From a bacterium (GTDB lineage Bacteria; Patescibacteriota; Minisyncoccia; UBA6257; UBA9933), in NCBI GenBank assembly GCA_030693235.1, contig JAUYBE010000006.1:71189-135188 (forward strand): DNA of 64,000 nucleotides, given 5' to 3'. Numbering within the stretch: position 1 is the stretch's first letter; every line of letters begins with the position of its first letter. Both the position numbers and the translations under genes were made by a program. Under the pieces are notes generated by a model. It was not told the DNA's origin. It did not search any database and saw only the letters and a program-made list of their open reading frames with translations. Below are positions 579 to 44,174 of this stretch, one piece after another.

Positions 579-911
579 ATGAAAATCAACATTAAAGCCA
601 CTAATTTGGAATTGACGCCGCCGATTCGCGAATATATAGAAAATAAAATCGGTTCGCTTAACCGTTTTTTGAAAAGATTCGAAAATAAAAGCGAAGTTGA
701 AGTATTTGTTGAAATTGCCCGCACTACCAAACATCATCGTCACGGCAATGTTTTATACGCGGAAGCCACTGTTCCGATTGGTAAAAAAATTTTAAGAGCC
801 GAGCATTTTGATTGGGATATCAGAGTGGCGATTGATAAAGTAAAAGATAAATTACAGAAGGAGATTAAAAAATATAAAGAGAAAAAAATAGTGAAAAGAA
901 GGAATGTTTAA
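579..911 (+). CDS. hpf: Ribosome hibernation promoting factor / RaiA family
   Basis: The sequence MKINIKATNLELTPPIREYIENKIGSLNRF...EVEVFVEIA matches the HPF/YfiA fold pattern. An internal ATG at 579 was chosen over the upstream TTG at 543. Confidence 0.8.
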   Translation: MKINIKATNLELTPPIREYIENKIGSLNRFLKRFENKSEVEVFVEIARTTKHHRHGNVLYAEATVPIGKKILRAEHFDWDIRVAIDKVKDKLQKEIKKYKEKKIVKRRNV

Positions 912-3279
912 TTTTTTAAAACAATTTTTCGGCAAATATGATTTTGAACCGCTAATTAAAAAAATTAATTCTTTAGAACCGGAACTGGAAAAATTAACAG
1001 ACGAAGAATTAAAAAACAAGAGCCTTGATTTGAAAAAAGCGGTTCAATCAAAAAGCCTCGATGATATTTTGCCCGAGGCTTTTGCGTTGGTAAGGGAAGC
1101 CGCCAAAAGGACATTGGGCCAGCGGCCTTTTGATGTTCAATTAATGGGCGGCGTTGTTTTGCATCAAGGAAAAATCGCCGAGATGAAAACCGGTGAAGGA
1201 AAAACTCTGGCAGCTGTTATGCCGGCTTATCTTAACGCTTTAACCGGCAAAGGCGTTCATATTATTACGGTTAACGATTATTTGGCGCGAAGAGACGCGA
1301 TTTGGATGGGGCAAATTTATCACGCTTTGGGATTGTCAATTGGATGTTTGACGCATGAAGCGGCGCTTTTATACGACCCAATGTATACCGAAAAAGATAA
1401 AGAACGCGATATTTTGGGAGGTTTTAAAATAGTTCACGAATTTCTTCGGCCGGTTTCAAGAAAAGAAGCTTATTTAGCCGATATTACTTACGGCACCAAT
1501 CACGAATTCGGTTTTGATTATCTTCGCGATAATTTGGTTTATGATTTAGGACAACAAGCTCAAAGGGGCAATCATTTCGCCATTATTGACGAGGTTGACA
1601 GTATTTTAATCGATGAGGCGCGCACTCCTTTGATTATCGCGGCGCCGGATACCGAATCCAGCGAGTATTATAAAATTTTCGCTAAAATTGTTGACAGACT
1701 TCGCAAAGATGATGATTATTTGGTTGATGAAAAATTAAAAACCGTCAGCATTACCGATGAGGGAATTGATAAAATAGAGAAGACGCTGAACATTAAAAAT
1801 CTTTACGGGCCGGAAAATTTTCGGATGGTTCATTATTTGGAAGAATCGCTTAAAGCTAAAACTTTATTTCATCTGGATAAAAATTATGTAGTTAAAAACG
1901 GCGAGGTGATTATTGTGGATGAATTTACCGGCCGGATGATGTATGGCCGAAGATATAGCGCCGGACTCCATCAGGCGATTGAAGCCAAAGAAAACGTCGC
2001 AATTAATCAGGAATCAAAAACTTTTGCCCAGATTACCATTCAGAATTATTTTCGGTTGTATGAAAAAATCAGCGGTATGACCGGCACGGCTCAGACATCG
2101 GCCGAGGAGTTTCATAAAGTTTACAATTTGGAAGTGATTAGCGTGCCGTCCAATAAACCGACGGTTCGCAATGATCTGTCGGATCTTATTTATAAAAATA
2201 CGGAAGCGAAATATCAAGCCGTGATTGAGGAAGTAAGAAAACGCCATTTAAGCGGCCAGCCGGTTCTCATCGGCACCGCTTCCATTACTCATAACGAAAT
2301 TTTATCGGATTTATTGAATCGAGCCGGCGTTTCGCACGAAGTTTTGAACGCCAAGAATCATGAATGCGAAGGATTGATTATCGCTCAGGCCGGAAAATTA
2401 GGAGCGGTTACCGTGGCGACTAACATGGCTGGCAGGGGAGTCGATATTGTTTTCGGCGGCAATCCTCCCGAGCCGGCAGAAGCGCGAAAAATCAGAGAAT
2501 TGGGCGGGTTGCATATTATCGGCACTGAAAGGCATGAAGCCAGAAGAATTGATAATCAGTTGCGCGGCAGAGCGGGACGGCAAGGAGATCCCGGTTCTTC
2601 GCAATTTTTTCTGTCTTTGGAAGACGATTTATTGCGGATTTTCGGCGGCGAAAGAATAAAAAGTTTAATGGAAGCGTTTAATTTGCCAGAGGATCAGCCG
2701 ATTGAATCGCGATTAGTTTCCAAAGTCGTTAATGAGGCCCAGAAAAAAGTTGAGGGAATGAATTTTGACGGCAGAAAACATTTATTGGAATACGACGATG
2801 TTTTGAACAAGCAACGGACGGCTTTTTATAAAAAAAGGCGGGAATTTTTATCTCCCTACGAGAGATCCCCCGAAGGGGGAGAACAAAAATCAAATCCGCA
2901 GGTTTTGGCGATGTTGGATATTTTATGGATGAACCATTTGGAAAATTTGGAAGCTTTGAGAGAGTCGGTTGGGATGCGGGCTTACGGCCAGCACGACCCT
3001 TTGGTGGAATATCGGCGGGAAAGTTTTTCGATGTTTAGAGAAATGATGGCGAATTTTGACAAATGGCTAAGCGAAAACGCAGAGCGTTTATCGCAACCAA
3101 CAACCAACGACCAACAATCAGCAAAAGAAAATAATTTAGGAAATGTCGTGGGTCGTGGGTCGTTAGTCGTCGGTCAGACCAAAGTCGGTCGCAATGATCC
3201 CTGCCCGTGCGGCAAAAAAAATCCACTTGCCAATAAACCAATGAAATACAAAAAATGTTGTTATCCAAAATTTGAATAA
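904..3279 (+). CDS. secA: Preprotein translocase ATPase SecA. It ends in the C-terminal zinc-binding tail CPCGKKNPLANKPMKYKKCCY and contains in-frame repeat insertions
   Basis: 791 aa. SecA DEAD-motor motifs are present: MKTGEGKTL, DEVDSILIDEARTPLII, TGTA, NMAGRGVDI. The start overlaps the hpf stop. Confidence 0.95.
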   Translation: MFNFLKQFFGKYDFEPLIKKINSLEPELEKLTDEELKNKSLDLKKAVQSKSLDDILPEAFALVREAAKRTLGQRPFDVQLMGGVVLHQGKIAEMKTGEGKTLAAVMPAYLNALTGKGVHIITVNDYLARRDAIWMGQIYHALGLSIGCLTHEAALLYDPMYTEKDKERDILGGFKIVHEFLRPVSRKEAYLADITYGTNHEFGFDYLRDNLVYDLGQQAQRGNHFAIIDEVDSILIDEARTPLIIAAPDTESSEYYKIFAKIVDRLRKDDDYLVDEKLKTVSITDEGIDKIEKTLNIKNLYGPENFRMVHYLEESLKAKTLFHLDKNYVVKNGEVIIVDEFTGRMMYGRRYSAGLHQAIEAKENVAINQESKTFAQITIQNYFRLYEKISGMTGTAQTSAEEFHKVYNLEVISVPSNKPTVRNDLSDLIYKNTEAKYQAVIEEVRKRHLSGQPVLIGTASITHNEILSDLLNRAGVSHEVLNAKNHECEGLIIAQAGKLGAVTVATNMAGRGVDIVFGGNPPEPAEARKIRELGGLHIIGTERHEARRIDNQLRGRAGRQGDPGSSQFFLSLEDDLLRIFGGERIKSLMEAFNLPEDQPIESRLVSKVVNEAQKKVEGMNFDGRKHLLEYDDVLNKQRTAFYKKRREFLSPYERSPEGGEQKSNPQVLAMLDILWMNHLENLEALRESVGMRAYGQHDPLVEYRRESFSMFREMMANFDKWLSENAERLSQPTTNDQQSAKENNLGNVVGRGSLVVGQTKVGRNDPCPCGKKNPLANKPMKYKKCCYPKFE

Positions 3280-3845
3280 AAAGATTGTAACATTTTTAGA
3301 ATTTTTTTACGAATTTTGGAGATATCATTTCGACTATTTAAGGTGAATTTTTTTCTGGTAATAAGCGCATGACAGTTTGGACAGACTAACATTAAATTAT
3401 CTATCTCATGTAGCCCTCCTTTGTTTTTGGGTACGATATGATGAGTATCAAGAGACAGTTCATAGCCACAAAATTCACATTTATCCCCATATTTTTTAAT
3501 CGCTTGCGCGCGAATCCAGGCTTTATGCTTTTTGATTTCGCCATATAAATACTTCTTTATTCCTAGTTTTCTACGGCGATATCTAACCGTCCATTGATTA
3601 GCCCTTTTAAATCCCATTTTCCTTAATTCTTTTGCAATTTCTTTATCAATCATTTTATGGAAATTTTTATTAATGAAATCGTCAACAACGGCATGGGGTA
3701 ATTTTTCAAGTGATTGATAAGCATCTTTCTTTAATTCAGGATAACCATGACGTCTAATTCTAGCCAAATGCATTGGGCAATAAATTTGCTTAGTATTCTT
3801 ATATAATGTAAACTTATTACATCCTTTTATTTTACACTCTGGCAT
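3261..3845 (-). CDS. HNH endonuclease domain protein (stand-alone, Cys-rich N-terminus)
   Basis: The C-terminal CEFCGYELSLDTHHIVPKNKGGLHEIDNLMLVCPNCH is a canonical HNH motif. The N-terminus has CxxC...CPMH. Confidence 0.8.
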   Translation of the reverse strand: MPECKIKGCNKFTLYKNTKQIYCPMHLARIRRHGYPELKKDAYQSLEKLPHAVVDDFINKNFHKMIDKEIAKELRKMGFKRANQWTVRYRRRKLGIKKYLYGEIKKHKAWIRAQAIKKYGDKCEFCGYELSLDTHHIVPKNKGGLHEIDNLMLVCPNCHALITRKKFTLNSRNDISKIRKKILKMLQSFYSNFG

Positions 3846-6196: not shown

Positions 6197-6894
6197 CATA
6201 ATTTCAACTATTACTAATTGATTGGACTATACCACCTTCTTTTTTTATTAAGAAGATCGACGTTTTATAAAATCTTTAAAGATTTTATCTCTCCGACATA
6301 AGTCGAAGAAGTCTCTACGGGGTTAATGTACGCTTTTTTCGTTTCTTAGAATAATTTAAATCCCGAAAACTATCTACTAATTTTGCGAGTTTAATAAAAT
6401 CATTCTTATTTTTTATATTTTCTTTCATATTTAGAATTTTTATCATCAGATTAACTTGTTCTTTTTTAAGAATTACAAATGGTTTTACCATTTTCAAAAA
6501 ATCGCGCAACGCGTCGGTTCTTCCAATTATATATTCAAGAATACCGTCTTTGCGTATTCTTAAATAACCTAAACCAATTAAATTACAAATCTTTTGAAAA
6601 TTAACCCGATCTTTCTGAGATTGAAATAAAACAATATATGGCGATACTTGAAAACCATACCGATAAGTTCGATTTGGTTTTAATCGCACATAAATACTTC
6701 CATCTCCGTCTAAAAATCCTGCGATATATGATTTTTGAATTTGATTAAGCATACACAACTTCCCTCGGTATTATCCTAACATTTGACAGGTTAAAAATCA
6801 ATATTAGGATTTCACCGATATGAGTCGATTTATGCATTTTGACATCACTGTCGAAAGCCGCCGTGTTCGATGGTCATAAAGGGTTCTTTCTTTG
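6197..6894 (-). mobile_element. Group I intron in 23S rRNA, inserted in the ...GGGTTyArAmCGU|CGUGAGACAG context (near E. coli position 2593, the I-CreI-type site). It carries a LAGLIDADG ORF
   Basis: Exon sequence gggttcaaaccgt is interrupted before cgtgagacag. The 5' exon ends in U and the intron ends in G (omega-G). The span is about 698 nt with the ORF inside. Confidence 0.75.
6315..6758 (-). CDS. LAGLIDADG homing endonuclease encoded in the 23S intron
   Basis: 147 aa with the N-terminal motif IAGFLDGDGSI (LAGLIDADG). It sits wholly inside rRNA sequence. Confidence 0.85.
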   Translation of the reverse strand: MCMLNQIQKSYIAGFLDGDGSIYVRLKPNRTYRYGFQVSPYIVLFQSQKDRVNFQKICNLIGLGYLRIRKDGILEYIIGRTDALRDFLKMVKPFVILKKEQVNLMIKILNMKENIKNKNDFIKLAKLVDSFRDLNYSKKRKKRTLTP

Positions 6895-7063: not shown

Positions 7064-8860
7064 ATCTCCGGCCTTTCTATAAAGGACCGTCGGGTCACTA
7101 AGTTCTGCTTTCGCACCGGCGCGGCTTGTCAGCCTTGCCGTTAAGCCGGCTTTTGCCTTTACGCGTCCAGCTCGATTTCCATCCGAGCTAAGCCGACCTT
7201 AATAAACTCCTCCGTTACTCTTTAGGAGGATTCCGCCCCAGAAAAACTGCCCGCCAGACACTGTCCCCGAACGTTTTTGCCGTTCAGGTTAGTTTTTAAA
7301 ATTTAAAAGATGGGTGTTTCATTGTCGGCTCCATCCCGACCGAGATCGAAACTTCAAAGCCTCCCCACTACGCTACGCATTTAAATTCTAAAAACAATAT
7401 CAAGCTACAGTAAAGCTCCCGGGGTCTTTTCGTCCCGCTAGAGGTATCCCGCGTCTTCACGGGAATCGCATTTTCACCGAGCTCCTCGTTGAGACAGTTC
7501 CCCAGTCGTTACACCTTTCGTGCGCTTCGGAACTTACCCGAAAAGGAATTGCGCTACCTTAGAACGATTATAGTTATCGCTGACATTGACGAGGGCTTGA
7601 GTCACTCAGCTGCGCATATTGCTACACGCAACCGGCAACCTTGACCTTCTCGCATCGGTCAGGTGTCACCCCCTATACCTCCTCTTACGAGTTTGCAGGG
7701 AGCTGTGTTTTTGTTAAACAGTCGCTAGGGATACTTTCGCTGCGACCCGAAAAATGCCTTGCGGCATCTCGGGTAGGCCTTATTGCTAACTTACGGCCGC
7801 TTTTTTGCCGAGTTCCTTAACGAGGAATCACTCGTTTCCCTGAGGCTACTCGCCTCATCCACCTGTGTCGGTTTACGGTACGGACCCAACATTTCTAATC
7901 TTAGAGGTTTTTCTCGGAGATTTGCTCGACAAACTTTATCCGGTAAAACCAGACATCGCCTCTACTCTGGGATTTGCTATTAAAAGCATCCCGACAGATT
8001 TTCTAGTCGGGAATCCTCGATCAAGGACGTCAAACCATTAAGACGCTTTATCTACTAAACCTCGTCACCCCATCGAAAAATATTGAGGGACTGGAATATT
8101 AACCAGTTGTCCATTAACTCCGGCTTTCGCCATTGCCTTAGGACCGCCTAACCCTCCGTTGATTTACATTGCGGAGGAAACCTTGGATTTGCGGGAGTCC
8201 GAGTTCTCATCGGACTTGCGGTTACTCATGCCAACATTCTCTCTTCCGTACGCTCCAGTTGCCCTCGCGGGTCAACCTTCAGCGCGTACGAAATGCTCTC
8301 CTACCACCCCCGACGTGAAGTCGGGGATTCGTGTTTTCGGTAATTTGCTTAGCCCCGGTAAATTTTCGGCGCAACCCGCCGTCGAATAGTGAGCTGTTAC
8401 GCACTCTTTAAAGGATGGCTGCCTCTAAGCCAACCTCCTATCTGTTTATGGCGGATAACTGCCTTTAACACTTAGCAAATATTTAGGGACCTTAAACGAC
8501 GATCAAGGGCTGTTTCCCTTTCGAACATGGAGCTTAGCCCCCACGTTCTAACTGCCGAGCCGTGCTTTTCCGTATTCGGAGTTTGACTGAGAAGTCGAGA
8601 TTTCTCCCTTTACTTCTTAACCAGTAGCTCTACCCCAGAAAAGTTTTTACTCGACGCCAGTCCTAAAACTGTTTCGGAGAGAACCAGCTATTACCAGGCT
8701 CGATTAGCTTTTCACTTCTTACCTCAGCTCATCCGAAGATTTTGCACAATCAACCGGTTCGGACCTCCATCCCGCTTTCGCGGGACTTCATCCTGGCCAA
8801 GGCAAGCTCGCCTGGCTTCGGGTCTTACACAAACCGTTAACCTCGCGCTCCGCGCGAGAA

Positions 8861-8998
8861 ATTTCTAATTTCTAATTTCTAATTTCTAAATAAATCCCAA
8901 TTTCCCAAATCCCAATAACCAAATATAATTGTGGTCATTTAGTGCTTGGTCATTGGTCATTATTTAGGTCAATTAGAAATTAGGTCAATTAGGAATTC
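8861..8998 (-). repeat. Palindromic repeat-built expansion, possibly an intervening sequence, inside 23S domain I/II. It is made of tctaatt / aattaga and tggtcat / tgaccaa type repeats
   Basis: About 140 nt of tandem and inverted ctaatt, cccaat and ggtcatt repeats replace a short variable helix between the conserved gggaaaccgagt and gtgtaagacccgaa blocks. The same repeat family occurs at 18287-18398 and 52770-52795. Confidence 0.6.
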
Positions 8999-17272: not shown

Positions 17273-17355
17273 TAATCAGGTTTTAGTTTTTAGTTTTTAG
17301 GTTTTAGATAATTTTTTTCTAACACCTAACACCTAACACCTAACACCTAAAAACT

Positions 17356-17739
17356 TTGAGACTAATAGGCATCAACATTCCAGATAATAAAAGAATAGAA
17401 ATCGCTTTAACCTATGTGTACGGCATCGGCCGTTCTTTGGCGAATGACATTTTAAAAACGACAAAAATCGATTTCAACAAGCGGGCGAAAGATTTAAGTC
17501 CCGAAGAAATCAGCCGCCTTAAGCAGGAAATTGAAAAAAGTTATAAAATTGAAGGAGAATTGCGCCAGTCAATAAAACAAAACATCGTTCGTCTTAAAGA
17601 AATTCAATGCTATCGAGGAAGCAGGCATTTAAAAAAATTACCGATAAGAGGTCAGCGGACCAAAACCAATTCCCGGACCGTCAGAGGCAATGTCAGAAAA
17701 ACGGTCGGCAGCGGAAAGAGAAAAGCGGACTTGAAGTAA
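17356..17739 (+). CDS. rpsM: Ribosomal protein uS13 (TTG start)
   Basis: Sequence RLIGINIPDNKRIEIALTYVYGIGRSLANDIL... matches S13. Confidence 0.9.
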   Translation: MRLIGINIPDNKRIEIALTYVYGIGRSLANDILKTTKIDFNKRAKDLSPEEISRLKQEIEKSYKIEGELRQSIKQNIVRLKEIQCYRGSRHLKKLPIRGQRTKTNSRTVRGNVRKTVGSGKRKADLK

Positions 17740-17826
17740 GTTCATAAAGTTCATAAAGTTCATAAAGTTTGTAAAGTTTAACGAATTCAACTTTATAACT
17801 TCCAACTTTATAAACTTTTAACTAAA

Positions 17827-18399: not shown

Positions 18400-19089
18400 G
18401 TGATTCAAGATCTAAATAAATTAGAGCAGAAACTCGGAACACAATTTAAAAATAAGGATTTTCTCAAGGAGGCCATTACTCATCGTTCTTATCTTAACGA
18501 AAATCCTTCTTGGGGCGTGCCCCATAATGAGCGCTTAGAATTTTTAGGAGACGCGGTTTTGGAATTGGCGGTAACGGAAAATCTTTTTAACCAGTTTCCG
18601 GATTTTTCCGAAGGACAATTGACGAGTTTGCGGGCGGCTTTGGTGAATTATCAAACAATGGCTAATGCGGCTCGCAATATAGATCTAGGAAATTTTATTT
18701 TATTGTCGCGAGGCGAAGCCAAGGATATCGGCCGGGCCCGGGAAGTGATTTTGGCCAACGCGATGGAGGCGTTAATTGGCGCGGTTTATTTGGACGCCGG
18801 ATACGCAAAGACAAAAGAATTAGTGGAAAAATTCGTTATTAATCTTTATTTGGAGCAGATTATCAAGAACAATCTTTATAAAGATCCAAAAAGTCATCTT
18901 CAGGAAATTGCTCAGGAAAAATTGAAACTGACTCCGACTTATCAATTGCTTGAAGAATGGGGTCCGGATCATAAGAAAATATTTAAGATGGGAGTTTTTT
19001 TTGGAGATAAATTAATTGCCCAAGGCGAGGGCTATTCCAAACAAGAGGCGGAAATCGAAGCGGCGAGGAACGCTCTGAAGAGTTTTTAG
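18400..19089 (+). CDS. rnc: Ribonuclease III (GTG start)
   Basis: RNase III signature ERLEFLGDAVLEL and a C-terminal dsRBD (QE...P.Y......GP.H...F). Confidence 0.9.
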   Translation: MIQDLNKLEQKLGTQFKNKDFLKEAITHRSYLNENPSWGVPHNERLEFLGDAVLELAVTENLFNQFPDFSEGQLTSLRAALVNYQTMANAARNIDLGNFILLSRGEAKDIGRAREVILANAMEALIGAVYLDAGYAKTKELVEKFVINLYLEQIIKNNLYKDPKSHLQEIAQEKLKLTPTYQLLEEWGPDHKKIFKMGVFFGDKLIAQGEGYSKQEAEIEAARNALKSF

Positions 19090-19159
19090 GTTTTAGTTTT
19101 TAGGTTTTAGATGAATTTTTTTCTAACACCCAACACCCAACACCTGACACCTAAATATT

Positions 19160-21412
19160 TTGTTTTTAAAATCATTAGAACTCAACGGTTTTAAATCTTT
19201 TGCCCAAAAGACGATTTTGGATTTTCCGGCCGGCATTACGGCGATCGTTGGGCCGAACGGCAGCGGCAAGTCGAATATCATTGACGCGATTCGCTGGCTT
19301 TTTGGCGAAAGAGAAGCGAAGAATTTAAGAAGCGCCAAAGCCGAAGATTTGATTTTTGGCGGCACGCCTTCCAAACCGAGAGTGGCGATGGCTTCCGCCG
19401 GCCTTCATTTTAATAATAATTCCGGTTTTTTTCCGGTTGATTTTAAAGAAGTTTCCGTTGTTCGCCGCGTTGGCCGGGACGGTTTTTCGCAATATTTTCT
19501 TAATAAAGCCGAAGTAAAACTCAAAGAAATAATCGATTTTTTCAGTCGTTCACGGCTTGGGACGAAAGGATTGACGGTTATCAATCAAGGCGAGGCAGAT
19601 TTATTCGTCAGGGCTTCAACCGAAGAGCGCCGAATAATGATTGAAGAAATCTTGGGTCTTAGAGAATATCAGATTAAAAAAACCGAAGCCGAACGCAAAT
19701 TAAAAAACACTTTTATTAATTTGGAAAAAGTCAGGGCGATGGTTGAAGAAGTAATTCCCCGGCTTCGAACGCTTAAGCGCCAAACCAATAAATGGGAGAA
19801 AAGAGCGGCAGTTCAAAAAGAATTGAACGATTTTGAAAATGAATATTTTTCCAGAAAATTAAATGAAATCAAAAACAGCCGAAAAGAATTTGAGCAGTTG
19901 CTTATTTCTTTGGAAAATCAAATTAAGGAGAGAGAGGGGGAATTGAAAATTTTGGAATCGGAGCTGAAAAAAGCGGAATTTCAGCCGCAAGAGCGTCAGG
20001 AAATCAATCCTTCGGCGTTGCTCAGGGTTGAGAAGCAAAAATTATTAACGGAACGTTTTTATATTCAAAAAGAATTGGGGCGAATTGAAGCGAAATTGGA
20101 ATTTTTGGCAATGCCTAAAATGTCAGACAGACCGGTTTTTGAAAATGCCTCCCTGCGGGAGGTCTCCCGTAGGGAGAAAGATTTACTTGATCTTATTAAT
20201 GAAACCAAAAAAATTCTCGGCGATTGTTTAATATGTTCGGATTTTGAAGATTTAAAAAAGACAATCAATGAATTGGCCGCGAAAATAGATAAGTTTTTGA
20301 GTTCCAAAAAAGAACCGGTTCTTTTGTCTCATAAGCCAATCGAGTCGAGTTTAAGGGATTTGGAAAACAGCAAAAATAATCTGGAAGCGAAATTAAATAT
20401 TATTGAAGCGGAATTTAAAAAATTTGAAGAGCAAGAAACGAAAATTACCGTTGGTTTGGAAGAGTTTAACAAGAAATTTCAAAAAGCTTTTGAATTGGTG
20501 GAATCGAAAAGAAAAGAATTGAGAGAATTGGACGGGAATAAAAACAGGATTCTTTTTGAAGGGGAAAAATCGAATTTGAAACTTCAAGATTTGGAAAATC
20601 AATTAAGTCAGATTGGGAAAACGACCAACGATCTACGACCAACGACTAACGATCAACGACTTACTGAGGTTGAGCTTGCTGAAATGGAGCGGAAGATGTT
20701 TAAATTAAGAACGGAATTGGCAGCTATCGGCGAGATTGATGAATCTCTGATAAAAGAAGCCCAAGAAGTTGAGGCGCATTATAATTTTTTGACAAATCAA
20801 TCGCAGGATTTGGAAAAAGCCATTATTGATTTAAAAAATCTTATTAAAGAATTGAGCGAAAAAATTCATTTTGAATTTAATGCTTCGCTTAAGTCCATTA
20901 ATGACGAGTTTAATAAATTTTTTAAATTGATGTTTGGCGGCGGAAACGCGAAGCTCAAAATAAAAAAACAAAAATTAAAAATAAAAAATATTGAAGATAT
21001 TGAAGACGGCGCTATCACGCGTGATAGTATTGAAAATTCTGGCGATAATGAAAATAACGATGAAATTCCGGTGGGCGTTGATATTGATCTTAATTTGCCG
21101 AAAAAAAGAATTACCAGTTTGGAAATGCTTTCCGGCGGGGAAAAAAGTTTGGTTTCAATCGCCGCGCTTTTCGCTTTGATTTCCATCAGCCCGCCGCCAT
21201 TTTTGGTTTTAGACGAGATTGACGCGGCTTTGGATGAAAATAATTCCGGAAGGTTTGCCGATTTAATTAAGGAATTTTCCAAGAAGACGCAATTTATCGT
21301 GGTTACTCATAACCGAGCGGTAATGGAAGTCGCCAACGCGTTATATGGAGTAACAGTAGGAGAGGATGGAACATCAAAAATACTTTCATTAAAACTTGAC
21401 ACTAAAAACTAA
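19160..21412 (+). CDS. smc: SMC-family chromosome segregation ATPase (short form, TTG start), with in-frame repeat insertions
   Basis: N-terminal Walker A GPNGSGKSNIIDAIRWLFGE. C-terminal signature LSGGEKSLVSIA and Walker B LVLDEIDAALD. Long coiled coils. Confidence 0.85.
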   Translation: MFLKSLELNGFKSFAQKTILDFPAGITAIVGPNGSGKSNIIDAIRWLFGEREAKNLRSAKAEDLIFGGTPSKPRVAMASAGLHFNNNSGFFPVDFKEVSVVRRVGRDGFSQYFLNKAEVKLKEIIDFFSRSRLGTKGLTVINQGEADLFVRASTEERRIMIEEILGLREYQIKKTEAERKLKNTFINLEKVRAMVEEVIPRLRTLKRQTNKWEKRAAVQKELNDFENEYFSRKLNEIKNSRKEFEQLLISLENQIKEREGELKILESELKKAEFQPQERQEINPSALLRVEKQKLLTERFYIQKELGRIEAKLEFLAMPKMSDRPVFENASLREVSRREKDLLDLINETKKILGDCLICSDFEDLKKTINELAAKIDKFLSSKKEPVLLSHKPIESSLRDLENSKNNLEAKLNIIEAEFKKFEEQETKITVGLEEFNKKFQKAFELVESKRKELRELDGNKNRILFEGEKSNLKLQDLENQLSQIGKTTNDLRPTTNDQRLTEVELAEMERKMFKLRTELAAIGEIDESLIKEAQEVEAHYNFLTNQSQDLEKAIIDLKNLIKELSEKIHFEFNASLKSINDEFNKFFKLMFGGGNAKLKIKKQKLKIKNIEDIEDGAITRDSIENSGDNENNDEIPVGVDIDLNLPKKRITSLEMLSGGEKSLVSIAALFALISISPPPFLVLDEIDAALDENNSGRFADLIKEFSKKTQFIVVTHNRAVMEVANALYGVTVGEDGTSKILSLKLDTKN

Positions 21413-22126: not shown

Positions 22127-22861
22127 ATGAAGTTTGATATCATCACAATTTTCCCTGATATTTTTTCCGCCAAGGGCGGATCTTATTTAAACGAGTCAAT
22201 TTTAAAGCGCGCGCGGGCCAAAAAATTAATTCAAATTAAAATCCATAATTTACGGGATTTTGCCGTTGGCAGCAGACTTATGCAGACTGAACGCGGACTT
22301 ACGCAGAAAAATGGATATCGTAAAGTAGATGATAAACCTTACGGTGGGGGACCGGGAATGGTGCTCAAACTTGAACCGCTCGTAAAAGCGGTTTCAAGTT
22401 TGAAGTCAAAAGTCAAAAGTCAAAGGTCAAAGGTTATAATATTCACGCCGGCGGGAAAACAGTTTGACAATAAAATTGCAGGGCAGTTGGCAAAAAATTA
22501 CAATAATTTAATTTTAATTTGCGGCCGCTATGAAGGCATTGACGCTCGCTTAATGCCGGTTCTTAAAACTTTAAAACTTTCAACTTTAGAACTTTCTGTT
22601 GGTCCCTATGTTTTAACCGGAGGTGAATTGGCGTCAATGGTTTTAATAGACGCGGTTTCGCGGCAAATTCCCGGCGTTCTTGGCAAAGAAGAATCGCTTG
22701 AGGAAAAACGTTTCGGTATTGGCGCGCCGGCTTATACCCGGCCGGAAACGTTTGTTTATGGGAATAAGAAATATAAAGTCCCGAAAGTTTTACTTTCCGG
22801 CAATCATAAAAAAATAGAAGATTGGAGAAGGAAGAAATCCCTTGAGATTCTTACAAGTTAG
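22127..22861 (+). CDS. trmD: tRNA (guanine37-N1)-methyltransferase TrmD, with in-frame repeat insertions
   Basis: Sequence FDIITIFPDIF...ICGRYEGIDARL...LTGGELASMVLIDAVSR matches TrmD. Extra segments RLMQTERGLTQKNG and KSKVKSQRSKV coincide with DNA repeats. Confidence 0.85.
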   Translation: MKFDIITIFPDIFSAKGGSYLNESILKRARAKKLIQIKIHNLRDFAVGSRLMQTERGLTQKNGYRKVDDKPYGGGPGMVLKLEPLVKAVSSLKSKVKSQRSKVIIFTPAGKQFDNKIAGQLAKNYNNLILICGRYEGIDARLMPVLKTLKLSTLELSVGPYVLTGGELASMVLIDAVSRQIPGVLGKEESLEEKRFGIGAPAYTRPETFVYGNKKYKVPKVLLSGNHKKIEDWRRKKSLEILTS

Positions 22862-22880: not shown

Positions 22881-24137
<1,257 letters not shown>

Positions 24138-24289
24138 ACCAAAAAATCATTCATTGTATTTATAACGATTGTATTTACGGCGTTCATAATTAAGAAGACG
24201 ACGAGTTATTCCGCTATGACATGTCATAGCGCTATGCTATAGCATAGCGCCGCAGTTCTTGCTGTCATACGAGATAATTTGAATTTATA

Positions 24290-24378
24290 TGCCGTGGACA
24301 GTCTCATCGATGACGTCCGCATTTACAACCGGGCTTTATCTCCAGCCGAAATCTCTGCTATATATAACGCGACTAAAT
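24290..24378 (+). pseudogene. Orphan duplicate of the pilin LamG C-terminal coding end (...VDSLIDDVRIYNRALSPAEISAIYNATK*)
   Basis: About 75% identical at DNA level to 24055-24137. It has no start or upstream ORF and is preceded by palindromes. Confidence 0.55.
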
Positions 24379-24928
24379 AAAACCCCAAACCCTAAACTCT
24401 TACGACTATTGTCGGTGTTAAAGCGCTCTAACCGATTAGAGCGGTCGAGCTAACTCGACCGCTCTCCGCTATTGCGCTTAATACATCTATAATGCGCCTA
24501 AAAAGTTTAGTTGATTAATTGTAAATCAGCGGATTTTAACAGCTCGCCTGTTTTTATGAGCTGAGCCGTTAAAAAACCAATTTGAGATTGCTTCGCTTCG
24601 TTCGCAATGACAAAACGACAGTCGTCATTGTGAACCCCGCTAAGCGGGGCGCGGCAATCTTTATAGATTGCTTCGCCTTCGGCTCGCAATGACAGAATTG
24701 GATTGCCGCCATCTATAACGCGACAAAGTAGTAAAGCAAATAAAATAGTAAAGCGAATAGTAAATGAAAATCATTACAACATAGCGGTAGAGATTGCCGC
24801 GCTCCCTTCGGTCGCTCGCAATGACATCTCGGCTCGCAATGACAAAAGCATCAATCAGTATATGCGATAAGATTGCTTGGCATTAAGCTATTGACGATGG
24901 CAATAAAATTTGATATTTTTATTAAATT

Positions 24929-25711
24929 ATGGAAACACAAGATTTACAATCGTTCGGTGCGGCTCACGATTGCCCTGAGCCTGCCGAAGGGCAACAAGAA
25001 TCGGTTGTCGTTCCGGCAAGCGAAGCGGATTTAAAAATTGTCGGAGAAATGATGACGGTTGGTTTGATGTACGGTCATAAAAAATCCAAGACCAATCCGA
25101 AATTTAAACAGTATATTTTTGCCACCAGAAATGGGATTGAAATTATTGATTTAGCCCAAACTTTATCCGCTTTGGAATCGGCGGTTGAATTTCTTAAGAA
25201 TCAAATTAATAACAAGGGATTGGTTTTGGTGGTTGCCAGTCAGTCGGCGGCGAGAGAAGCTGTGGAAAATTTGGCGGGAAAATTCAATTTCGCCTATATT
25301 AATGATAGATGGGTCGGCGGTTTATTGACCAATTTCAAGGTTTTGTCTCAGCGAATTGAATATTTCAAAAAAGTCCAGTCCGGTCTTGAGAAAGGCGAAT
25401 TTGAAAAATACACGAAAAAAGAGCGATTAATGATTAATCGAAATATCCAACGGATGGAAAAAATGTTTTCCGGATTGAAAAATTTAATAAAATTGCCGGA
25501 CGCTATTTTAATGATAGACCCTTCATTAAAAGGTCATGTGGCGGCGGTTCGGGAAGCCAAAAGAATGGGAATTCCGTTAGTTGCCATTATTGACAGCGAT
25601 GATAACCCGGATTTGATTGATTATCCGATTCCGGCGAATGACCACGCGAAAATGAGCATTGATTGGATTGTTAATAAAATTTCTGAAAAATTATCAGACG
25701 CGCATGCTTAA
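24929..25711 (+). CDS. rpsB: Ribosomal protein uS2 (N-terminal extension or alternative start)
   Basis: Sequence MMTVGLMYGHKKSKTNPKFKQYIFATRNGIEIIDL...NDRWVGGLLTNF matches S2. About 40 extra N-terminal residues relative to typical S2. Confidence 0.85.
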   Translation: METQDLQSFGAAHDCPEPAEGQQESVVVPASEADLKIVGEMMTVGLMYGHKKSKTNPKFKQYIFATRNGIEIIDLAQTLSALESAVEFLKNQINNKGLVLVVASQSAAREAVENLAGKFNFAYINDRWVGGLLTNFKVLSQRIEYFKKVQSGLEKGEFEKYTKKERLMINRNIQRMEKMFSGLKNLIKLPDAILMIDPSLKGHVAAVREAKRMGIPLVAIIDSDDNPDLIDYPIPANDHAKMSIDWIVNKISEKLSDAHA

Positions 25712-31626: not shown

Positions 31627-31770
31627 CAAGAAAAATACATAGATTATTATAAATAATAATCCGCGGACAACAGGCATTTAAGACCTGTCGAGGATGGCGA
31701 TTTTTGTCTGCGGCATTCTGCCGTATTTTTGTTACTAAAACCTAACACCTAAAACCTATAACCTAACTTT

Positions 31771-33560: not shown

Positions 33561-33653
33561 GTTAAAAGTTCGTAAAGTTCGTAAAGTTTATAAAGTCCGT
33601 AAAATTTAAAAAATTCAACTTTATAACTTTCAACTTTATAACTTTACAAACTG

Positions 33654-34613
33654 ATGCATAAGCCTGTTCTTTTAAAAGAAGTTATTGAAATTTTAAATCC
33701 ACAGTCCGGAGAATTTTTTATTGATGGAACATTGGGCAGTGGCGGGCACGCGGTTGAAATTATTAAAAAAATTTCGCCGAACGGAATATTTTTGGGAGTT
33801 GATTGGGATAAGGATGTAATAGAGAATTTCAAATCAAACCTAAAACCTAAAAGCTATAACCTAAAAGCTATTAGGTTGGTTCACGGCAATTACGCGGATT
33901 TGCCGGAAATTTTGTCTGCCTACGGCAGATCTCCCGAAGGGAGAAAAAAATACAAATTGCCGAAAGCCGACGGATTGCTCATTGATTTGGGATTTTCTTC
34001 CGAGCAGTTGGAGAAATCGGGCAGGGGATTCAGTTTTTTAAGAGATGAACCGCTGGATATGAGATATGACACGAAAGTTGAAAGTTTAACCGCGGCGGAA
34101 GCGGTAAACAGTTTCAACGAAAAAGATTTGGCGGATATTTTTTGGAAATACGGCGAAGAAAGATTTTCCCGAAGAATCGCCAAAAAGATTGTTGAAGAAA
34201 GGAAGAAAAAAAGAATTTTAATAACATTTGATTTAGTGGAAGTAATCAAAAGAGCTGTACCGAAAAGTTATGAAAAAGGCAGAATTCACCCCGCCACTCG
34301 CGTTTTTCAAGCCCTGCGGATTTATGTCAATGACGAATTGGGCAATTTGGAAAAATTATTAAAAAATCTGGAGAAAATTATAAAACCTAAAGGTCGAGTC
34401 GCTATAATTTCATTTCATTCATTGGAAGATCGCTTGGTTAAAAACTATTTTCGGGAGATGGCGAAACCTGCCCGCATTGCTACGCAAAGCGTTGCAGGCG
34501 GGAAAGGAATGGCGGAAATTTTAACCAAGAAACCGATAACGGCGACGCTGGAGGAAATTAGAAGCAATCCAAGGTCGCGATCGGCGAAAATGAGAGCAAT
34601 AAAACTTCTATGA
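33654..34613 (+). CDS. rsmH: 16S rRNA (cytosine1402-N4)-methyltransferase RsmH (MraW), with three in-frame repeat insertions
   Basis: Sequence HKPVLLKEVIE...FIDGTLGSGGHA...DLGFSSEQL...ISFHSLEDRLVK matches RsmH. Confidence 0.9.
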   Translation: MHKPVLLKEVIEILNPQSGEFFIDGTLGSGGHAVEIIKKISPNGIFLGVDWDKDVIENFKSNLKPKSYNLKAIRLVHGNYADLPEILSAYGRSPEGRKKYKLPKADGLLIDLGFSSEQLEKSGRGFSFLRDEPLDMRYDTKVESLTAAEAVNSFNEKDLADIFWKYGEERFSRRIAKKIVEERKKKRILITFDLVEVIKRAVPKSYEKGRIHPATRVFQALRIYVNDELGNLEKLLKNLEKIIKPKGRVAIISFHSLEDRLVKNYFREMAKPARIATQSVAGGKGMAEILTKKPITATLEEIRSNPRSRSAKMRAIKLL

Positions 34614-36647: not shown

Positions 36648-38015
36648 ATGAAACATCTTTTATTGAAAATTTTACAATTAATTTTAAAGCAATTAGCTAA
36701 GCTGACGATTTGGCGTTTTCAGCCGCGGGTTATCGCCATTACTGGCAGTGTCGGGAAAACTTCCGCCAAAGAGGCGATTTACGCGGTTTTATCCGCCTCG
36801 GGCGGAAAAAATCATCGTCGGGTGAGAAAATCCGAGGGCAACTTAAATAATGAATTGGGTGTGCCGCTTGCCATAATCGGAGAATGGAAAGAAGAGGAAT
36901 TAAAATTGGTTAGTCGCGATACGCCGTCCGGCAAGAAAAAAATTAGAAAATTATTATTTTGGCTAAAAGTAATTTTTTATGGCTTAGCTCAGTCCCTTTT
37001 TCTTAAAAAATCCGTTTATCCTGAAATTTTAATATTAGAATACGCGGCAGACCGGCCAGGAGATATTAAAGAGCTTTTGGAAATCGCCAAGCCCTATATC
37101 GGAATTATTACAGCTATTGGCGAAATACCCGTACATATAGAATTTTTCAGCGGTCCGGAAGCGATAGTTCGAGAAAAGGCGAGAGTCGTTGAAAATTTAT
37201 CGGCAAATGGTTTTGCCGTATTGAATTTTGACAACGAAGCAATAATAAATATGAAAGAACGAACCCGCGCCAAAATTATCACTTTCGGTTTTAATGAAGG
37301 CGCGGATGTGAAAATCAGCGGTTTTGATTATGCGCAGACCAACGCAAACAGTCAGCGTGAGTCCGCGTTAAGTCCGCGTGAGTCAGCGTGGCGCGAAGCG
37401 CCAATGGGCGTTTCTTTTAAGATTGAATACGCCGGCAGTTTTGTGCCGGTAGTTTTAAAGAATGTTTTCGGGAAAGCTCAGGCTTATGCCGCTGCGGTTG
37501 CCGCCTGCGTTGGTTTGATTTTTGATTTAAATTTGGTGGAAATTTCCGAGGCGCTTTCAATAAATTACCGGCCGGCCAAAGGAAGAATGAATTTATTAAA
37601 AGGAATCAAGGATACTTATATTATCAACGACGCCTACAACGCTTCGCCGATTTCAATGGAAGAAGCTTTAACAACGCTCGGCGATTTGTCGGCTGAAAGA
37701 AAAATCGCGGTTCTGGGAGATATGCTGGAATTGGGAAAATATTCGGTTGAAGCTCACGAATCAATCGGCCGATTAGCCGGGAAAATAGTTGATGTTTTAA
37801 TTACCGTCGGTCCGCGGGCGAAATTTATCGCCGAATCAGCGGAAGCCGTTGGGCTGGACAAAAACAAAATTTTGAGTTTTGATACGACGACGGAAGCTTG
37901 TCGGGCGGTTCAGGACTTGATTAAAAAAGGCGATTTGATTTTAATAAAAGCGTCAAGAGCAATAGGATTGGAAGAGATAGTGGAGGAAATTAAAGAAATT
38001 GCCGCTTTCGTCTAG
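36648..38015 (+). CDS. murF: Mur ligase family protein, probably UDP-MurNAc-tripeptide--D-Ala-D-Ala ligase MurF, with an in-frame repeat insertion
   Basis: P-loop AITGSVGKTSAKE. Mur ligase middle and C-domains present. dcw cluster context. Confidence 0.7.
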   Translation: MKHLLLKILQLILKQLAKLTIWRFQPRVIAITGSVGKTSAKEAIYAVLSASGGKNHRRVRKSEGNLNNELGVPLAIIGEWKEEELKLVSRDTPSGKKKIRKLLFWLKVIFYGLAQSLFLKKSVYPEILILEYAADRPGDIKELLEIAKPYIGIITAIGEIPVHIEFFSGPEAIVREKARVVENLSANGFAVLNFDNEAIINMKERTRAKIITFGFNEGADVKISGFDYAQTNANSQRESALSPRESAWREAPMGVSFKIEYAGSFVPVVLKNVFGKAQAYAAAVAACVGLIFDLNLVEISEALSINYRPAKGRMNLLKGIKDTYIINDAYNASPISMEEALTTLGDLSAERKIAVLGDMLELGKYSVEAHESIGRLAGKIVDVLITVGPRAKFIAESAEAVGLDKNKILSFDTTTEACRAVQDLIKKGDLILIKASRAIGLEEIVEEIKEIAAFV

Positions 38016-38210: not shown

Positions 38211-38585
38211 ATGTTATTAGCTAATATTATAAAAGATAAATATCTCAGAGTGGTGGGCGTTCTCAGTGTTTTGGTCGTATTTTTGGCGGGAGCGGTTTTT
38301 TATTCTCAGCCAGAGGCTGATCCGCTTCAGGCGGAAAAACTCGGGCAAACGACAACGCCTTTAATTATTCGTTTTGAGGCCGATAAAGATATTGATTTTT
38401 TGGCCGGCCGGATGGAAGTTCTCGGAATTTTATTGTCCGCTTTGACAATAATTTTAATTAATTTCTTTTTAGCTAATTTTCTTTATCGTCGCGAAAGATT
38501 TCTTTCTTATATTTTCAGTTTTGCCAGCTTGGTTATCGCGGTATTGATTTTAATAATAATATCTGTTATTGTTTCTGTAAATTGA
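38211..38585 (+). CDS. Hypothetical membrane protein
   Basis: ORF track entry. Three hydrophobic helices. Confidence 0.4.
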   Translation: MLLANIIKDKYLRVVGVLSVLVVFLAGAVFYSQPEADPLQAEKLGQTTTPLIIRFEADKDIDFLAGRMEVLGILLSALTIILINFFLANFLYRRERFLSYIFSFASLVIAVLILIIISVIVSVN

Positions 38586-43505: not shown

Positions 43506-44174
43506 ATGAAAATAAAGGATTTACCAAAAATTGAGCGGCCGCGAGAAAAACTAATCGCGAAAGGAGCCGAGAATTTGAAGGACTCGGAACTTTTGGCGAT
43601 TCTCTTACGGACCGGTAAAACCGGGAAAAATGTGATTGAAATCGCTTCCCAGATTTTAACTAAGCATTCCAAGAAACGGCTTTTGCAAATGACCTATGAG
43701 GATTTATTGAAAATCGGCGGAATTGATTCCGCAAAAGCCACGACACTTCTTGCCGCTTTTGAGCTATCCAAGCGCGCGATTGAAGTTAATGACACGAATT
43801 TACCGACCATCGTTACCTCTAAAGATGTCGTGGCTCAATTGACCGAACTGCGCCACAACAAAAAAGAGCATTTTATCGCTCTGTACCTAAACGCCAGAAA
43901 TCAGCTGGTGCATAAAGAAACGATTTCAATAGGAACTCTGAATGCTAATCTCGTCCATCCGCGCGAAGTTTTCGAGCCGGCCATTAGGCATTCGGCCGCC
44001 AATATTATAGTTGCGCATAATCATCCTTCCGGAGATCCGAAACCGTCAGAAGACGATTTGGAGATTACAAAGCGATTAACGGAGGCAGGCAAGATAATGG
44101 GCGTTGAACTTTTGGATCATGTCATTATCGCGACAAACAGCGTTTTTAGTTTTAAGGATGAAAAGTTGTTATGA
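43506..44174 (+). CDS. radC: RadC-family JAB/MPN domain protein
   Basis: N-terminal HhH-like region. The C-terminal JAMM-like motif HNHPSGDPKPSEDD is diagnostic for RadC/UPF0758. Confidence 0.85.
   Translation: MKIKDLPKIERPREKLIAKGAENLKDSELLAILLRTGKTGKNVIEIASQILTKHSKKRLLQMTYEDLLKIGGIDSAKATTLLAAFELSKRAIEVNDTNLPTIVTSKDVVAQLTELRHNKKEHFIALYLNARNQLVHKETISIGTLNANLVHPREVFEPAIRHSAANIIVAHNHPSGDPKPSEDDLEITKRLTEAGKIMGVELLDHVIIATNSVFSFKDEKLL

Follow-up and report, generated by a model that had tools for sequence, protein, structure and literature searches.

Introduction

Short palindromic repeats able to settle inside genes have been described in a few bacterial and organellar lineages. Rickettsia palindromic elements (RPEs) are known only from Rickettsia, RPE-1 being some 100-150 bp long, and the mechanism by which they are mobilised is unexplained. 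Fungal mitochondrial double-hairpin elements carry two adjacent hairpins per unit. Two hairpins are likewise found in the palindrome-associated elements derived from IS200/IS605. These are asymmetric and strand-specific, are cleaved at sites displaced from the hairpins and insert, without duplicating the target site, beside a short sequence that they favour. REP and REPIN sequences, mobilised by RAYT proteins, are short GC-rich palindromes that also occur as dimers; they sometimes lie in-frame in housekeeping genes and are distributed sporadically, as mobile DNA typically is (Di Nocera et al. 2013, PMC3733652). The same work mentions RPEs as palindromic repeats. In yeast mitochondria, GC clusters such as GC42 measure about 42 nt and intron endonucleases are suspected in their case (Wu and Hao 2015, PMC4478555), and repetitive hairpin-forming elements are present in sponge mitochondria (PMC2800124).

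Here we analyse a double-hairpin element of a patescibacterium. The window is a stretch of 64,000 nt with a GC content of about 39%, corresponding to positions 71,189-135,188 of the forward strand of contig JAUYBE010000006.1 (assembly GCA_030693235.1; Patescibacteriota, Minisyncoccia, UBA6257, UBA9933).

Results

Copies in the window

A sequence-only reading had placed the element in-frame in secA, rsmH and smc. All three sequences were confirmed in the window, together with the peptides quoted for them; the sites were right, although the element measures 30 nt and its secA copy starts at 2851, 1 nt later than claimed. It consists of exactly two 15-nt units, each with a 6-bp stem and a 3-nt loop, and the two hairpins abut. 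The secA copy (2851-2880, plus strand; TCTCCCTACGAGAGA followed by TCCCCCGAAGGGGGA) encodes SPYERSPEGG and has one C.A mismatch in the first hairpin, the rsmH copy (33915-33944, plus strand; TCTGCCTACGGCAGA followed by TCTCCCGAAGGGAGA) encodes SAYGRSPEGR, and the third copy (20148-20177, plus strand; CCTCCCTGCGGGAGG followed by TCTCCCGTAGGGAGA), which begins at codon position 2, encodes (A)SLREVSRRE. The reading phase, proposed to differ among the copies, does so for this last one, whereas those in secA and rsmH are both in phase 0. The host genes secA (904-3279, plus strand; 791 aa) and rsmH (33654-34613, plus strand; 319 aa) were verified by Pfam, which recognises SecA domains and MraW/RsmH, respectively. 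The product taken for Smc (19160-21412, plus strand; 750 aa) is an SMC_N-family ATPase with no SMC hinge family among its Pfam matches, and is for this reason called SMC-like here.

The search for further copies, which had been suggested at the outset, yielded a fourth one in the window (38306-38335, plus strand; TCAGCCAGAGGCTGA followed by TCCGCTTCAGGCGGA) and a large family in genome and metagenome collections. The fourth copy gives the peptide SQPEADPLQAE within ORF 38211-38585, for which no Pfam family was found. All four copies thus lie within ORFs, at a density of about one per 16 kb. In addition, single 15-nt units occur in phase 0 in trmD (22166-22180, plus strand; TCCGCCAAGGGCGGA, peptide SAKGG), at a gap with respect to solved TrmD structures, and in a Mur ligase gene (36792-36806, plus strand; TCCGCCTCGGGCGGA, peptide SASGG), between the flanks TTTTA and AAAAA. 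Dinucleotide shuffles rule out chance or codon bias: with at least 11 of 12 stem pairs required, the window holds 4 abutting GC-rich hairpin pairs against 0.0 in 40 shuffles, and 23 GC-rich single hairpins (6-bp stem, triloop; rRNA excluded) against 2.6 +/- 1.2 expected. No Rfam family matches at the double-hairpin elements. Several other in-frame hairpin repeat families are present in the same genome; rsmH itself contains one more hairpin insert, of 36 nt and unrelated to the first (34467-34502).

Insertion relative to orthologues

The copies in SecA, the SMC-like protein and RsmH are insertions relative to their orthologues, as the sequence-only reading had proposed. About 40 aligned SecA orthologues, including five at 87-89% identity, all lack exactly these 10 aa. 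At the DNA level, the secA genes of three relatives (L125, L126 and L127) have an empty site, GGGAATTTTT joined to GGAGAAAAAAATC, where the window carries the 30-mer, with a local flank identity of about 97%; against this DNA, the 30-mer is the only long indel within the conserved part of the gene. The boundary of the insertion is blurred by a GGAGA microhomology at its 3' junction. In the protein, the insert falls in a short linker where the alignment with the B. subtilis protein skips about 94 residues. As for the SMC-like protein, all 38 aligned orthologues miss the 10 aa at the element site, and removal of the 30 nt from the gene restores VFENEDLL, to be compared with VFKNEDLL in the orthologues.

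Of 45 RsmH orthologues, most lack the insert, as do the aligned PDB RsmH/MraW sequences. At the same site, a different member of the family is found in another genome (L001); the site is therefore filled in two lineages, whose copies differ by three compensatory changes in the stems. In the AF2 model of RsmH, pLDDT is <50 at residues 91-99 and the insert is predicted to lie in a coil, a low-confidence loop. Equivalent residues were also looked for in orthologues of unrelated bacteria, and nothing was found that refutes the proposal.

A dispersed family with clean empty sites

The 30-mer belongs to a large dispersed repeat family of many uncultivated bacteria, described by the pattern TCCGCC, TCYCCC or TCTGCC followed by NNN and the complement, twice. 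Scans of a genome and a metagenome collection with this pattern, in which complementarity was not enforced, gave at least 120 loci each. Perfect double palindromes account for 99 of the 127 metagenome matches listed and for nearly all of the listed genome matches outside high-GC actinomycetes; the estimated chance expectation in the genome collection is about 1 match. Among the matches listed, the hosts are mainly Patescibacteria, together with Ignavibacteriota, Omnitrophota, Kiritimatiellae and others, and the copies come from projects independent of one another, some of them on contigs of 0.46-1.63 Mb. A viral collection of 2.9 million contigs yielded only 3 matches, of which one is probably a tandem repeat in coding sequence; this speaks against carriage by phages. 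A tRNA-like context around one match (L036) was not confirmed by ARAGORN. A literature search outside subscription journals found no description of the 30-mer in bacteria of the candidate phyla radiation (CPR).

Six further pairs of related loci differ by the exact presence or absence of the 30 nt; together with secA, seven sites have empty counterparts and none shows a target duplication. Left flanks are T-rich (TTN) and right flanks A-rich (NAA): of the listed copies, 86-89% have T at position -2 and 82-83% have A at position +2. Flanking direct repeats of 6-7 nt accompany 27 of 238 listed copies, where about 4 would be expected. A canonical target-site duplication was thus rejected, since the clean pairs have none and the repeats represent a real but minor excess; conversely, this minority indicates that one single duplication-free mechanism is not the full explanation.

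The spacing of the units is enriched at 15 nt and at no other distance, which argues against 15-mers being the ends of a longer element, composite or autonomous. The two halves sometimes differ in stem type (TCCGCC with TCCCCC, or CCAGCC), so that units shuffle. In one orthologous copy the loop is inverted, from TCC to GGA, and in one locus pair the changes are symmetric over the entire palindrome. Two copies (L186 and L003) are identical at 30 of 30 positions, their flanks being 93% identical; this identity and the shared rsmH site make some conservation compatible with constraint.

Stem structure and folding

The overall layout is a unit followed by roughly its reverse complement, with two-fold symmetry and an almost invariant GATC across the centre. 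Units open with TC or, rarely, CC and close with GA or, rarely, GG, and their stems vary between copies (TCCGCC, TCTCCC, TCCCCC, TCAGCC, CCAGCC). Across the listed family copies, stems covary while loops vary: two-hairpin pairing reaches 98.5%, as compared to 86.4% in shuffles, with 0 of 500 shuffles attaining this value, and double-sided stem changes number 193 versus 82 in shuffles. The same copies are just 86.2% paired as one long hairpin and their middle loop positions are anti-complementary (20 complementary versus 38.7 expected), which rejects the whole 30-mer as a single long hairpin or perfect palindrome.

The RNA folding proposed as a check separates the window copies. Those in rsmH and at 38306 fold into two hairpins (z -2.2 to -4.6) and the SMC-like copy prefers a single 12-bp hairpin (z -4.5 to -4.9), all three beating shuffles, whereas the copy in secA folds weakly (z about -0.7 to -1.2), no better than shuffles, owing to its C.A mismatch.

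Reading phase and peptide filter

Within the listed copies, 153 of 238 lie in ORFs of at least 450 nt and about a third lie outside long ORFs. Across copies the element is read in three phases; in long ORFs, phase 0 accounts for 64 of 85 and 45 of 78 listed copies, and gives the peptide S-A/P-x-G-G/R twice. Orientations giving Ser outnumber those giving Phe by 26:10. The peptide therefore acts as a filter after all, with phase 0 and the Ser orientation favoured in long ORFs. What the copies share, however, is the nucleotide sequence and the palindrome, not the peptide, and for this reason the earlier inference of a nucleic-acid-level element holds; the fixed codon choice, the covarying stems and the use of several phases point in the same direction.

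Discussion

A probable mini insertion element

Family membership, insertion status, covariation, presence/absence polymorphism, phase filtering and, for RsmH, the position in a loop are all shown by the analysis. The best reading of the 30-mer, and one that we consider likely, is that of a mini insertion element akin to REPs, RPEs or GC clusters, moved by a putative mobilising enzyme. Such a 30-bp, non-coding, palindromic element would spread, or would have spread, as DNA among Patescibacteria and several uncultivated phyla, new copies of exactly 30 bp inserting, mostly with no duplication of the target, at junctions between T-rich and A-rich sequence. Copies landing in genes would be kept only if the frame is preserved (30 nt being 10 codons), if the insertion point is a surface loop or linker that tolerates them and if phase and orientation yield a harmless Ser/Ala/Pro/Gly-rich peptide. 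A benefit to the host would not be required for persistence. The model predicts translated peptides spanning EFLSPYERSPEGGEQK. Counted against it are the nearly identical 30-mers of different phyla, which would require either lateral transfer or one recognising enzyme common to them all, the low number of matches in viral contigs (3 in 2.9 million), and the missing strand or orientation bias (by the weak proxy of majority gene strand) that would be expected of single-strand HUH transposition.

The hairpins may be the feature recognised by the putative mobilising machinery. As to its nature, we offer a guess that is rather doubtful: a structure-specific single-strand DNA enzyme, for instance a RAYT/IS200-type Y1 (HUH) transposase. 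An enzyme of this kind would act on the folded 30-mer, in which the stacked hairpins would unite the 5' and 3' ends into a nicked dumbbell whose junction reads GATC. In close relatives, a RAYT-like Y1 transposase gene (Y1_Tnp, PF01797) is located about 2.5 kb upstream of secA. A link of this gene to the 30-mer is nevertheless not supported: its product scores 39.6 bits versus a cut-off of 80 for NF047646 (RAYT), it is flanked by a different hairpin of 33-37 nt, and Y1 homologues accompany only 3 of about 240 listed element-bearing loci. Within the 64-kb window, no Y1/RAYT gene was found.

It is possible, if somewhat unlikely, that no smaller unit of mobile DNA with an autonomous appearance has so far been described than the 30-mer, a cross-phylum dumbbell in which the two stacked hairpins would by themselves specify excision and duplication-free insertion by a widespread single-strand DNA enzyme, of the host or of a mobile element. 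If so, dumbbell 30-mers would continually seed loops in essential proteins (SecA, RsmH, RpoC, DnaE and others) of ultra-small bacteria and, together with the other hairpin families of the genome, would be a major overlooked source of length variation in CPR proteins.

Alternative explanations

An alternative that we regard as improbable is a DNA-level signal for a host or widespread protein, such as an uptake-like sequence, the site of a dimeric protein or a GATC/GGATCC methylation or restriction site. The two-fold symmetry around the nearly invariant centre and the sequence conservation across phyla would fit a signal, and CPR bacteria depend on DNA uptake. On the other hand, 4 copies in 64 kb is a low density, copies originate as 30-bp insertions and not by drift through point mutations, and a cognate protein was not identified. 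Stems differ between copies, moreover, so recognition of structure fits better than recognition of sequence.

We see little chance that the element is a functional RNA, its transcribed hairpins being selected for mRNA stabilisation, processing or translational pausing, as the sequence-only reading had entertained. The compensatory changes that keep the stems, the folding of three window copies and the rsmH site filled in two lineages are what such selection would be expected to leave. The distribution of the copies speaks otherwise, these being sporadic among close orthologues, at sites that differ between lineages and in about a third of cases outside long ORFs. The element is also nearly strand-symmetric, with class II copies oriented 17:23 relative to the coding strand in phase 0; outside phase-0 coding copies no orientation bias indicative of strand-specific insertion was seen (11:8 and 7:14 for copies outside ORFs), by the weak proxy of majority gene strand. 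Mismatches in stems on the coding strand show no excess of G.T over A.C (8 versus 5), with no sign of selection on sense-RNA pairing through G.U wobble, and the secA copy has its C.A mismatch on the mRNA strand and a fold no better than shuffles. Selection as an RNA hairpin is therefore not sustained by our analysis.

A local mutational by-product, in which fold-back or template-switch synthesis or break repair makes palindromes at T/A-rich sites, is likewise very improbable. Consistent with it are the microhomology at the secA 3' junction, the inverted (flip/flop) loop, the pair with palindrome-wide symmetric changes, and flanking direct repeats that are variable and often absent. Yet the same TCCGCC/TCYCCC 15-mers recur in unrelated genes and phyla, and the empty sites of rsmH, L137, L162 and others hold no stem template. 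Finally, we give hardly any credit to chance, to codon usage, to selection on the peptide as a flexible linker or to an artefact of assembly, plausible as the phase-0 peptide is as a linker, given that shuffles yield 0 double hairpins, that one fixed codon set out of hundreds possible is used in genomes of 35-45% GC, that three phases are used and copies also lie outside long ORFs, and that the copies stem from independent projects and long contigs with an in-frame bias foreign to artefacts.

Taken as a mini insertion element, the insert looks like a tiny piece of selfish DNA tolerated as a floppy protein loop, not like a conserved regulatory RNA. This would widen the range of selfish palindromes within genes from Rickettsia and organelles to the CPR and several uncultivated phyla, at only 30 bp. 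Public data hold at least hundreds of copies with clean empty/filled pairs, which makes the long-open question of how palindromes move approachable. In practical terms, the 30-mers and the other hairpin families inflate and fragment marker-protein alignments and account for lineage-specific CPR loops.

Comparison with known systems

Two classes of repeat are readily set aside. MITEs measure 70-300 bp, carry TIRs and a fixed-length target-site duplication, and have an autonomous IS as a relative, whereas the 30-mer has 30 bp and direct repeats at 27 of 238 listed copies. DNA uptake sequences are high-density short cores arising by substitution, in contrast to 30-bp insertions at about 1 per 16 kb. 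IS200/IS605-type elements come closer: the 30-mer shares their lack of target duplication and a preferred neighbour (T at -2 in 86-89% of listed copies), but neither their strand bias (by the weak proxy) nor a cognate TnpA was seen (Y1 at 3 of about 240 loci).

Mitochondrial hairpin elements resemble the 30-mer in the adjacent hairpin pair, the occasional insertion in protein and rRNA genes and the variable sites, and differ in being organellar, unrelated in sequence and mostly intergenic. GC clusters are, like it, GC-rich hairpins of an AT-rich genome, with conserved stems, variable loops, a sporadic distribution and units that merge or shuffle; they are, however, organellar and have AG or ACT as direct repeats on either side, unlike the clean 30-mer pairs, which are without duplication and lie in bacterial chromosomes.

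With REP/REPIN, the 30-mer has in common short GC-rich palindromes, dimers, in-frame placement in housekeeping genes and sporadic occurrence, and a gene for a RAYT-like protein is present in close relatives of the organism. REP units are nevertheless imperfect palindromes of 20-40 nt with a GTAG or CGTC tag, as opposed to untagged units of 15 nt, and are predominantly extragenic, while the 30-mer is mostly intragenic (153 of 238 listed copies in ORFs of at least 450 nt); REPs go with a RAYT gene flanked by the same repeats, and none flanked by 15-nt units was found. RPEs, finally, offer the likeness of a palindrome lying in-frame in conserved, apparently functional genes and tolerated as extra peptide, and it is by its 30 bp, its cross-phylum distribution and its patescibacterial host that the 30-mer is set apart from them.

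Copies of the element in the window

Each copy of the element spans exactly 30 nt, built from a pair of directly adjoining 15-nt units that both have a 6-bp stem and a 3-nt loop. The three copies that the sequence-only reading placed in secA, rsmH and smc are all present, with coordinates corrected to 2851-2880 in secA (TCTCCCTACGAGAGA followed by TCCCCCGAAGGGGGA, with one C.A mismatch), 33915-33944 in rsmH (TCTGCCTACGGCAGA, TCTCCCGAAGGGAGA) and 20148-20177 in an SMC-like gene (CCTCCCTGCGGGAGG, TCTCCCGTAGGGAGA). To these we add a fourth at 38306-38335 (TCAGCCAGAGGCTGA, TCCGCTTCAGGCGGA), within the ORF 38211-38585, and single 15-nt units at 22166 in trmD and at 36792 in a Mur ligase gene. According to Pfam, the three host genes encode SecA, RsmH/MraW and an SMC_N-family ATPase, the SMC hinge family being absent from the Pfam matches of the latter.

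The secA and rsmH copies begin at a codon start (phase 0) and encode SPYERSPEGG and SAYGRSPEGR, which resemble each other because the two copies are read in the same phase. The SMC-like copy alone, starting at codon position 2, is read in another phase, so that the earlier proposal that the peptides differ by phase holds for this copy and not for the other two.

The double hairpins are beyond chance in this window of approximately 39% GC: four have 11 or 12 of their 12 stem pairs formed, compared to none in 40 dinucleotide-preserving shuffles, and, with the rRNA region left out, GC-rich triloop hairpins number 23, against 2.6 +/- 1.2 in shuffles. The best named RsmH and SecA matches are Wolfebacteria, Jorgensenbacteria and Paceibacterota MAGs, and the source of the window is a member of Patescibacteria.

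Insertion into conserved genes

Orthologues of the three proteins mostly lack residues equivalent to the element, the presence of which would have counted against the sequence-only reading, and the copies therefore stand as insertions. In SecA, the window's REFL-SPYERSPEGG-EQKSNP corresponds to REFL-EKKSAG in approximately 40 aligned orthologues, five of them 87-89% identical. The empty site is present in the DNA of three related loci (L125, L126 and L127) as GGGAATTTTT abutting GGAGAAAAAAATC, with a local flank identity of about 97%, and the element is the sole long indel within the conserved part of the gene; its boundary is uncertain by a few bases because of a GGAGA microhomology at the 3' junction. 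The insertion point is a short linker, shared by all aligned relatives, at which the B. subtilis SecA alignment jumps: about 94 residues (622-716), which we take as the region of the helical wing domain, are unaligned to the C-terminal part of the window protein (2551-3279).

As for the SMC-like gene, 38 of 38 aligned orthologues are without the 10 residues, and in silico deletion of 20148-20177 yields VFENEDLL, compared to VFKNEDLL in the orthologues. Most of 45 RsmH orthologues read PEIL-KK with no insert, and three aligned solved structures (T. maritima, E. coli and 1wg8) show a gap at the position. In the RsmH AlphaFold model (mean pLDDT 89) the insert is a coil that follows helix 80-89 and precedes strand 105-111, with pLDDT below 50 at residues 91-99.

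Structural constraint and reading phase

Among 115 distinct copies, two-hairpin pairing reaches 98.5% versus 86.4% in shuffles, a value attained by none of 500 shuffles, and double-sided stem changes, at positions 3:13, 4:12, 18:28 and 19:27, number 193 versus 82. Folding as a single long hairpin gives a pairing of just 86.2%, and the middle loop bases of the TCCGCC family are complementary less often than expected; the conserved feature is thus a pair of local palindromes. The central GA/TC is almost invariant, and the flanks carry T at position -2 in 86-89% of copies and A at +2 in 82-83%.

Of the copies in ORFs of 450 nt or longer, 64 of 85 and 45 of 78 are in phase 0, which encodes S-A/P-x-G-G/R twice, and the TCCGCC family favors the coding-strand Ser orientation over Phe by 26:10; the peptide thus acts as a filter on surviving copies. 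The earlier inference that the element is shaped at the nucleic-acid level holds. The selected RNA hairpin suggested along with it is not supported, given that no orientation bias was found in other classes or outside ORFs and wobble pairs are not enriched among coding-strand stem mismatches; the RNA strand seems to make no difference.

Signs of gain, loss and change of copies

Within the set of loci retrieved, exact 30-nt presence/absence without target duplication is seen in six more related pairs, as in the junctions ACTTTT^AATATT (L137 versus L133) and GATTTC^AAAAAT (L162 versus L187). Flank identities in the pair search were about 70-85%. Orthologous filled pairs include a copy identical at 30/30 positions between flanks 93% identical, a copy with an inverted loop (TCC to GGA) and another copy with changes at positions 3 and 28, symmetric over the whole palindrome. 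At the rsmH site, the related locus L001 carries TCCGCCCAAGGCGGA followed by TCCGCCTCTGGCGGA in the same place as the window copy, differing at 11 of 30 positions, with six of six stem differences compensatory; rsmH of L003 holds a similar 30-mer at a different site. Of 238 copies, 27 have flanking direct repeats of 6-7 nt, with about 4 expected; these are a real minority feature, unexplained by a single mechanism lacking target-site duplication (TSD). Taken as a whole, the element is a DNA-level, insertion-derived and structurally constrained dispersed repeat.

Family and hosts

Scanning one genome per species with the pattern TCYSCCNNNGGSRGATCYSCCNNNGGSRGA, complementarity not being enforced and about one chance match being estimated, returned at least 120 loci. 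Among the matches listed, nearly all, high-GC actinomycetes excepted, are perfect double palindromes, most commonly TCCGCC-NRA-GGCGGA-TCCGCC-TYN-GGCGGA. A metagenome scan for the TCYCCC type gave at least 120 loci as well (99 of 127 perfect among the matches listed). Mixed stem types were seen: TCCGCC with TCCCCC, TCTGCC with TCTCCC, and CCAGCC.

Hosts among the matches listed comprise many Patescibacteria classes, Ignavibacteriota, Omnitrophota, Kiritimatiellae, Planctomycetota, Lentisphaerae and others. Mis-binning could account for some short contigs, but cannot explain megabase ones; element-bearing Ignavibacteriota contigs measure 1.63 Mb and 457 kb. The Ignavibacteriota copies lie within what look, from the translations, like C-terminal secretion-sorting domains, and by our reading of translated ORFs the host genes include those of an RpoC-like and a DnaE-like protein. 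Two Ignavibacteriota loci (L041 at ~6021, L046 at ~1446) carry a TCCGCC-type element at the same position of what looks like such a domain, in two different secreted proteins (FSAKGGSAYGGDG, FSAIGGSASGREP).

Other repeats in the window

The pgk gene (52548-53927) encodes a PGK of 459 aa, compared to 394 aa in its best PDB match, 1php, and holds four or more inserts of hairpin or repeat type (52744, 52884, 53104 and 53738-53840). The insert at 53104, PVRNSPARRDAISNG, faces a 19-aa gap in 1php, and the peptide PVRNSPAERDAISNG is common to pgk and, at a different site, the SMC-like orthologue P0244. A second, unrelated in-frame hairpin family is represented by an imperfect 36-40-nt hairpin, CCTGCCCGCATTGCTACGCAAAGCGTTGCAGGCGGG, 95% identical between rsmH (34467-34506) and lepA (40840-40879); the rsmH copy (PARIATQSVAGG) is unique to the window's orthologue, with pLDDT below 50 at residues 278-281.

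Tandem repeats (AGTCCGCGT)n and the reverse complement (ACGCGGAMT)n are dispersed within ORFs, among them those of trmD, a Mur ligase and pgk (22285, 35225, 37352, 39301, 40089, 53471 and 53751-53837). At 8842-8893, inside the 23S rRNA gene on the minus strand, and at 52744-52793 in pgk, (AATTTCT)n comes after a GC hairpin; the heptamer repeats AATTTCT, CTAACAC and AAAATTG often adjoin GC hairpins, both here and in metagenome matches such as L164, and may be insertion footprints. Intergenic families, of the TTTTAGG...(CTAACAC)n and AAGTTCATA-type palindromic kinds, lie upstream or downstream of genes (17281-17358, 19085-19162, 31728-31766; 17738-17813, 33566-33641), one AAGTTCATA-type repeat being directly upstream of rsmH. 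The 800 nt at 24137-24929 are free of ORFs, and neither Rfam, even with E<=1, nor ARAGORN, for tRNA and tmRNA, gives a match there; the stretch holds several strong hairpins (24212-24250, 24424-24465, 24635-24649) and the repeat D20. A possible type I restriction-modification locus spans 44171-51879, with its R subunit, by Pfam, at 48757-51879.

Mobilization

Endonuclease-triggered repair or gene conversion is one possible route of mobilization. An HNH endonuclease gene (3261-3845, minus strand) abuts secA, overlapping its 3' end tail to tail, where close relatives have a GrpB gene, and a LAGLIDADG ORF (6315-6758, minus strand) adjoins the 23S rRNA gene, lying between it and the 5S gene. The matching region of relative L126 has three LAGLIDADG ORFs, which suggests rRNA intron differences.

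A specific candidate for mobilization is an HUH/Y1 transposase, which we favor with low confidence. Judging by its sequence, the folded 30-mer would stack as a 12-bp duplex with two triloop caps and abutting ends, an attractive substrate for such a single-strand enzyme, and TSD-less insertion would be compatible with this class. A RAYT-like Y1 gene does lie about 2.5 kb upstream of secA in relatives (L125 6815-7516, L127 1324-2025). It holds an in-frame 36-nt hairpin, TTTCAATCTTACGAGGTTTAACCTCGTAAGATTGAAA, encoding FQSYEVKPRKIE, with a second copy directly downstream, and this hairpin differs from the 30-nt element. Y1 homologues are not enriched near elements, and the strand bias expected of a single-strand mechanism was not seen, the majority gene strand serving as a weak proxy.

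Comparison with known systems

We found no description of the element in the literature, a search in which absence is no proof, most subscription journals lying outside it. The element differs from REPs in tag, size and extragenic location, from Rickettsia palindromic elements in size and host, from mitochondrial GC clusters in flanking repeat and organellar location, and from MITEs in their defining features. In its behavior it is like intragenic REP dimers, Rickettsia palindromic elements and, in mitochondria, GC clusters or double-hairpin elements (PMC3733652, PMC4478555, PMC2800124).
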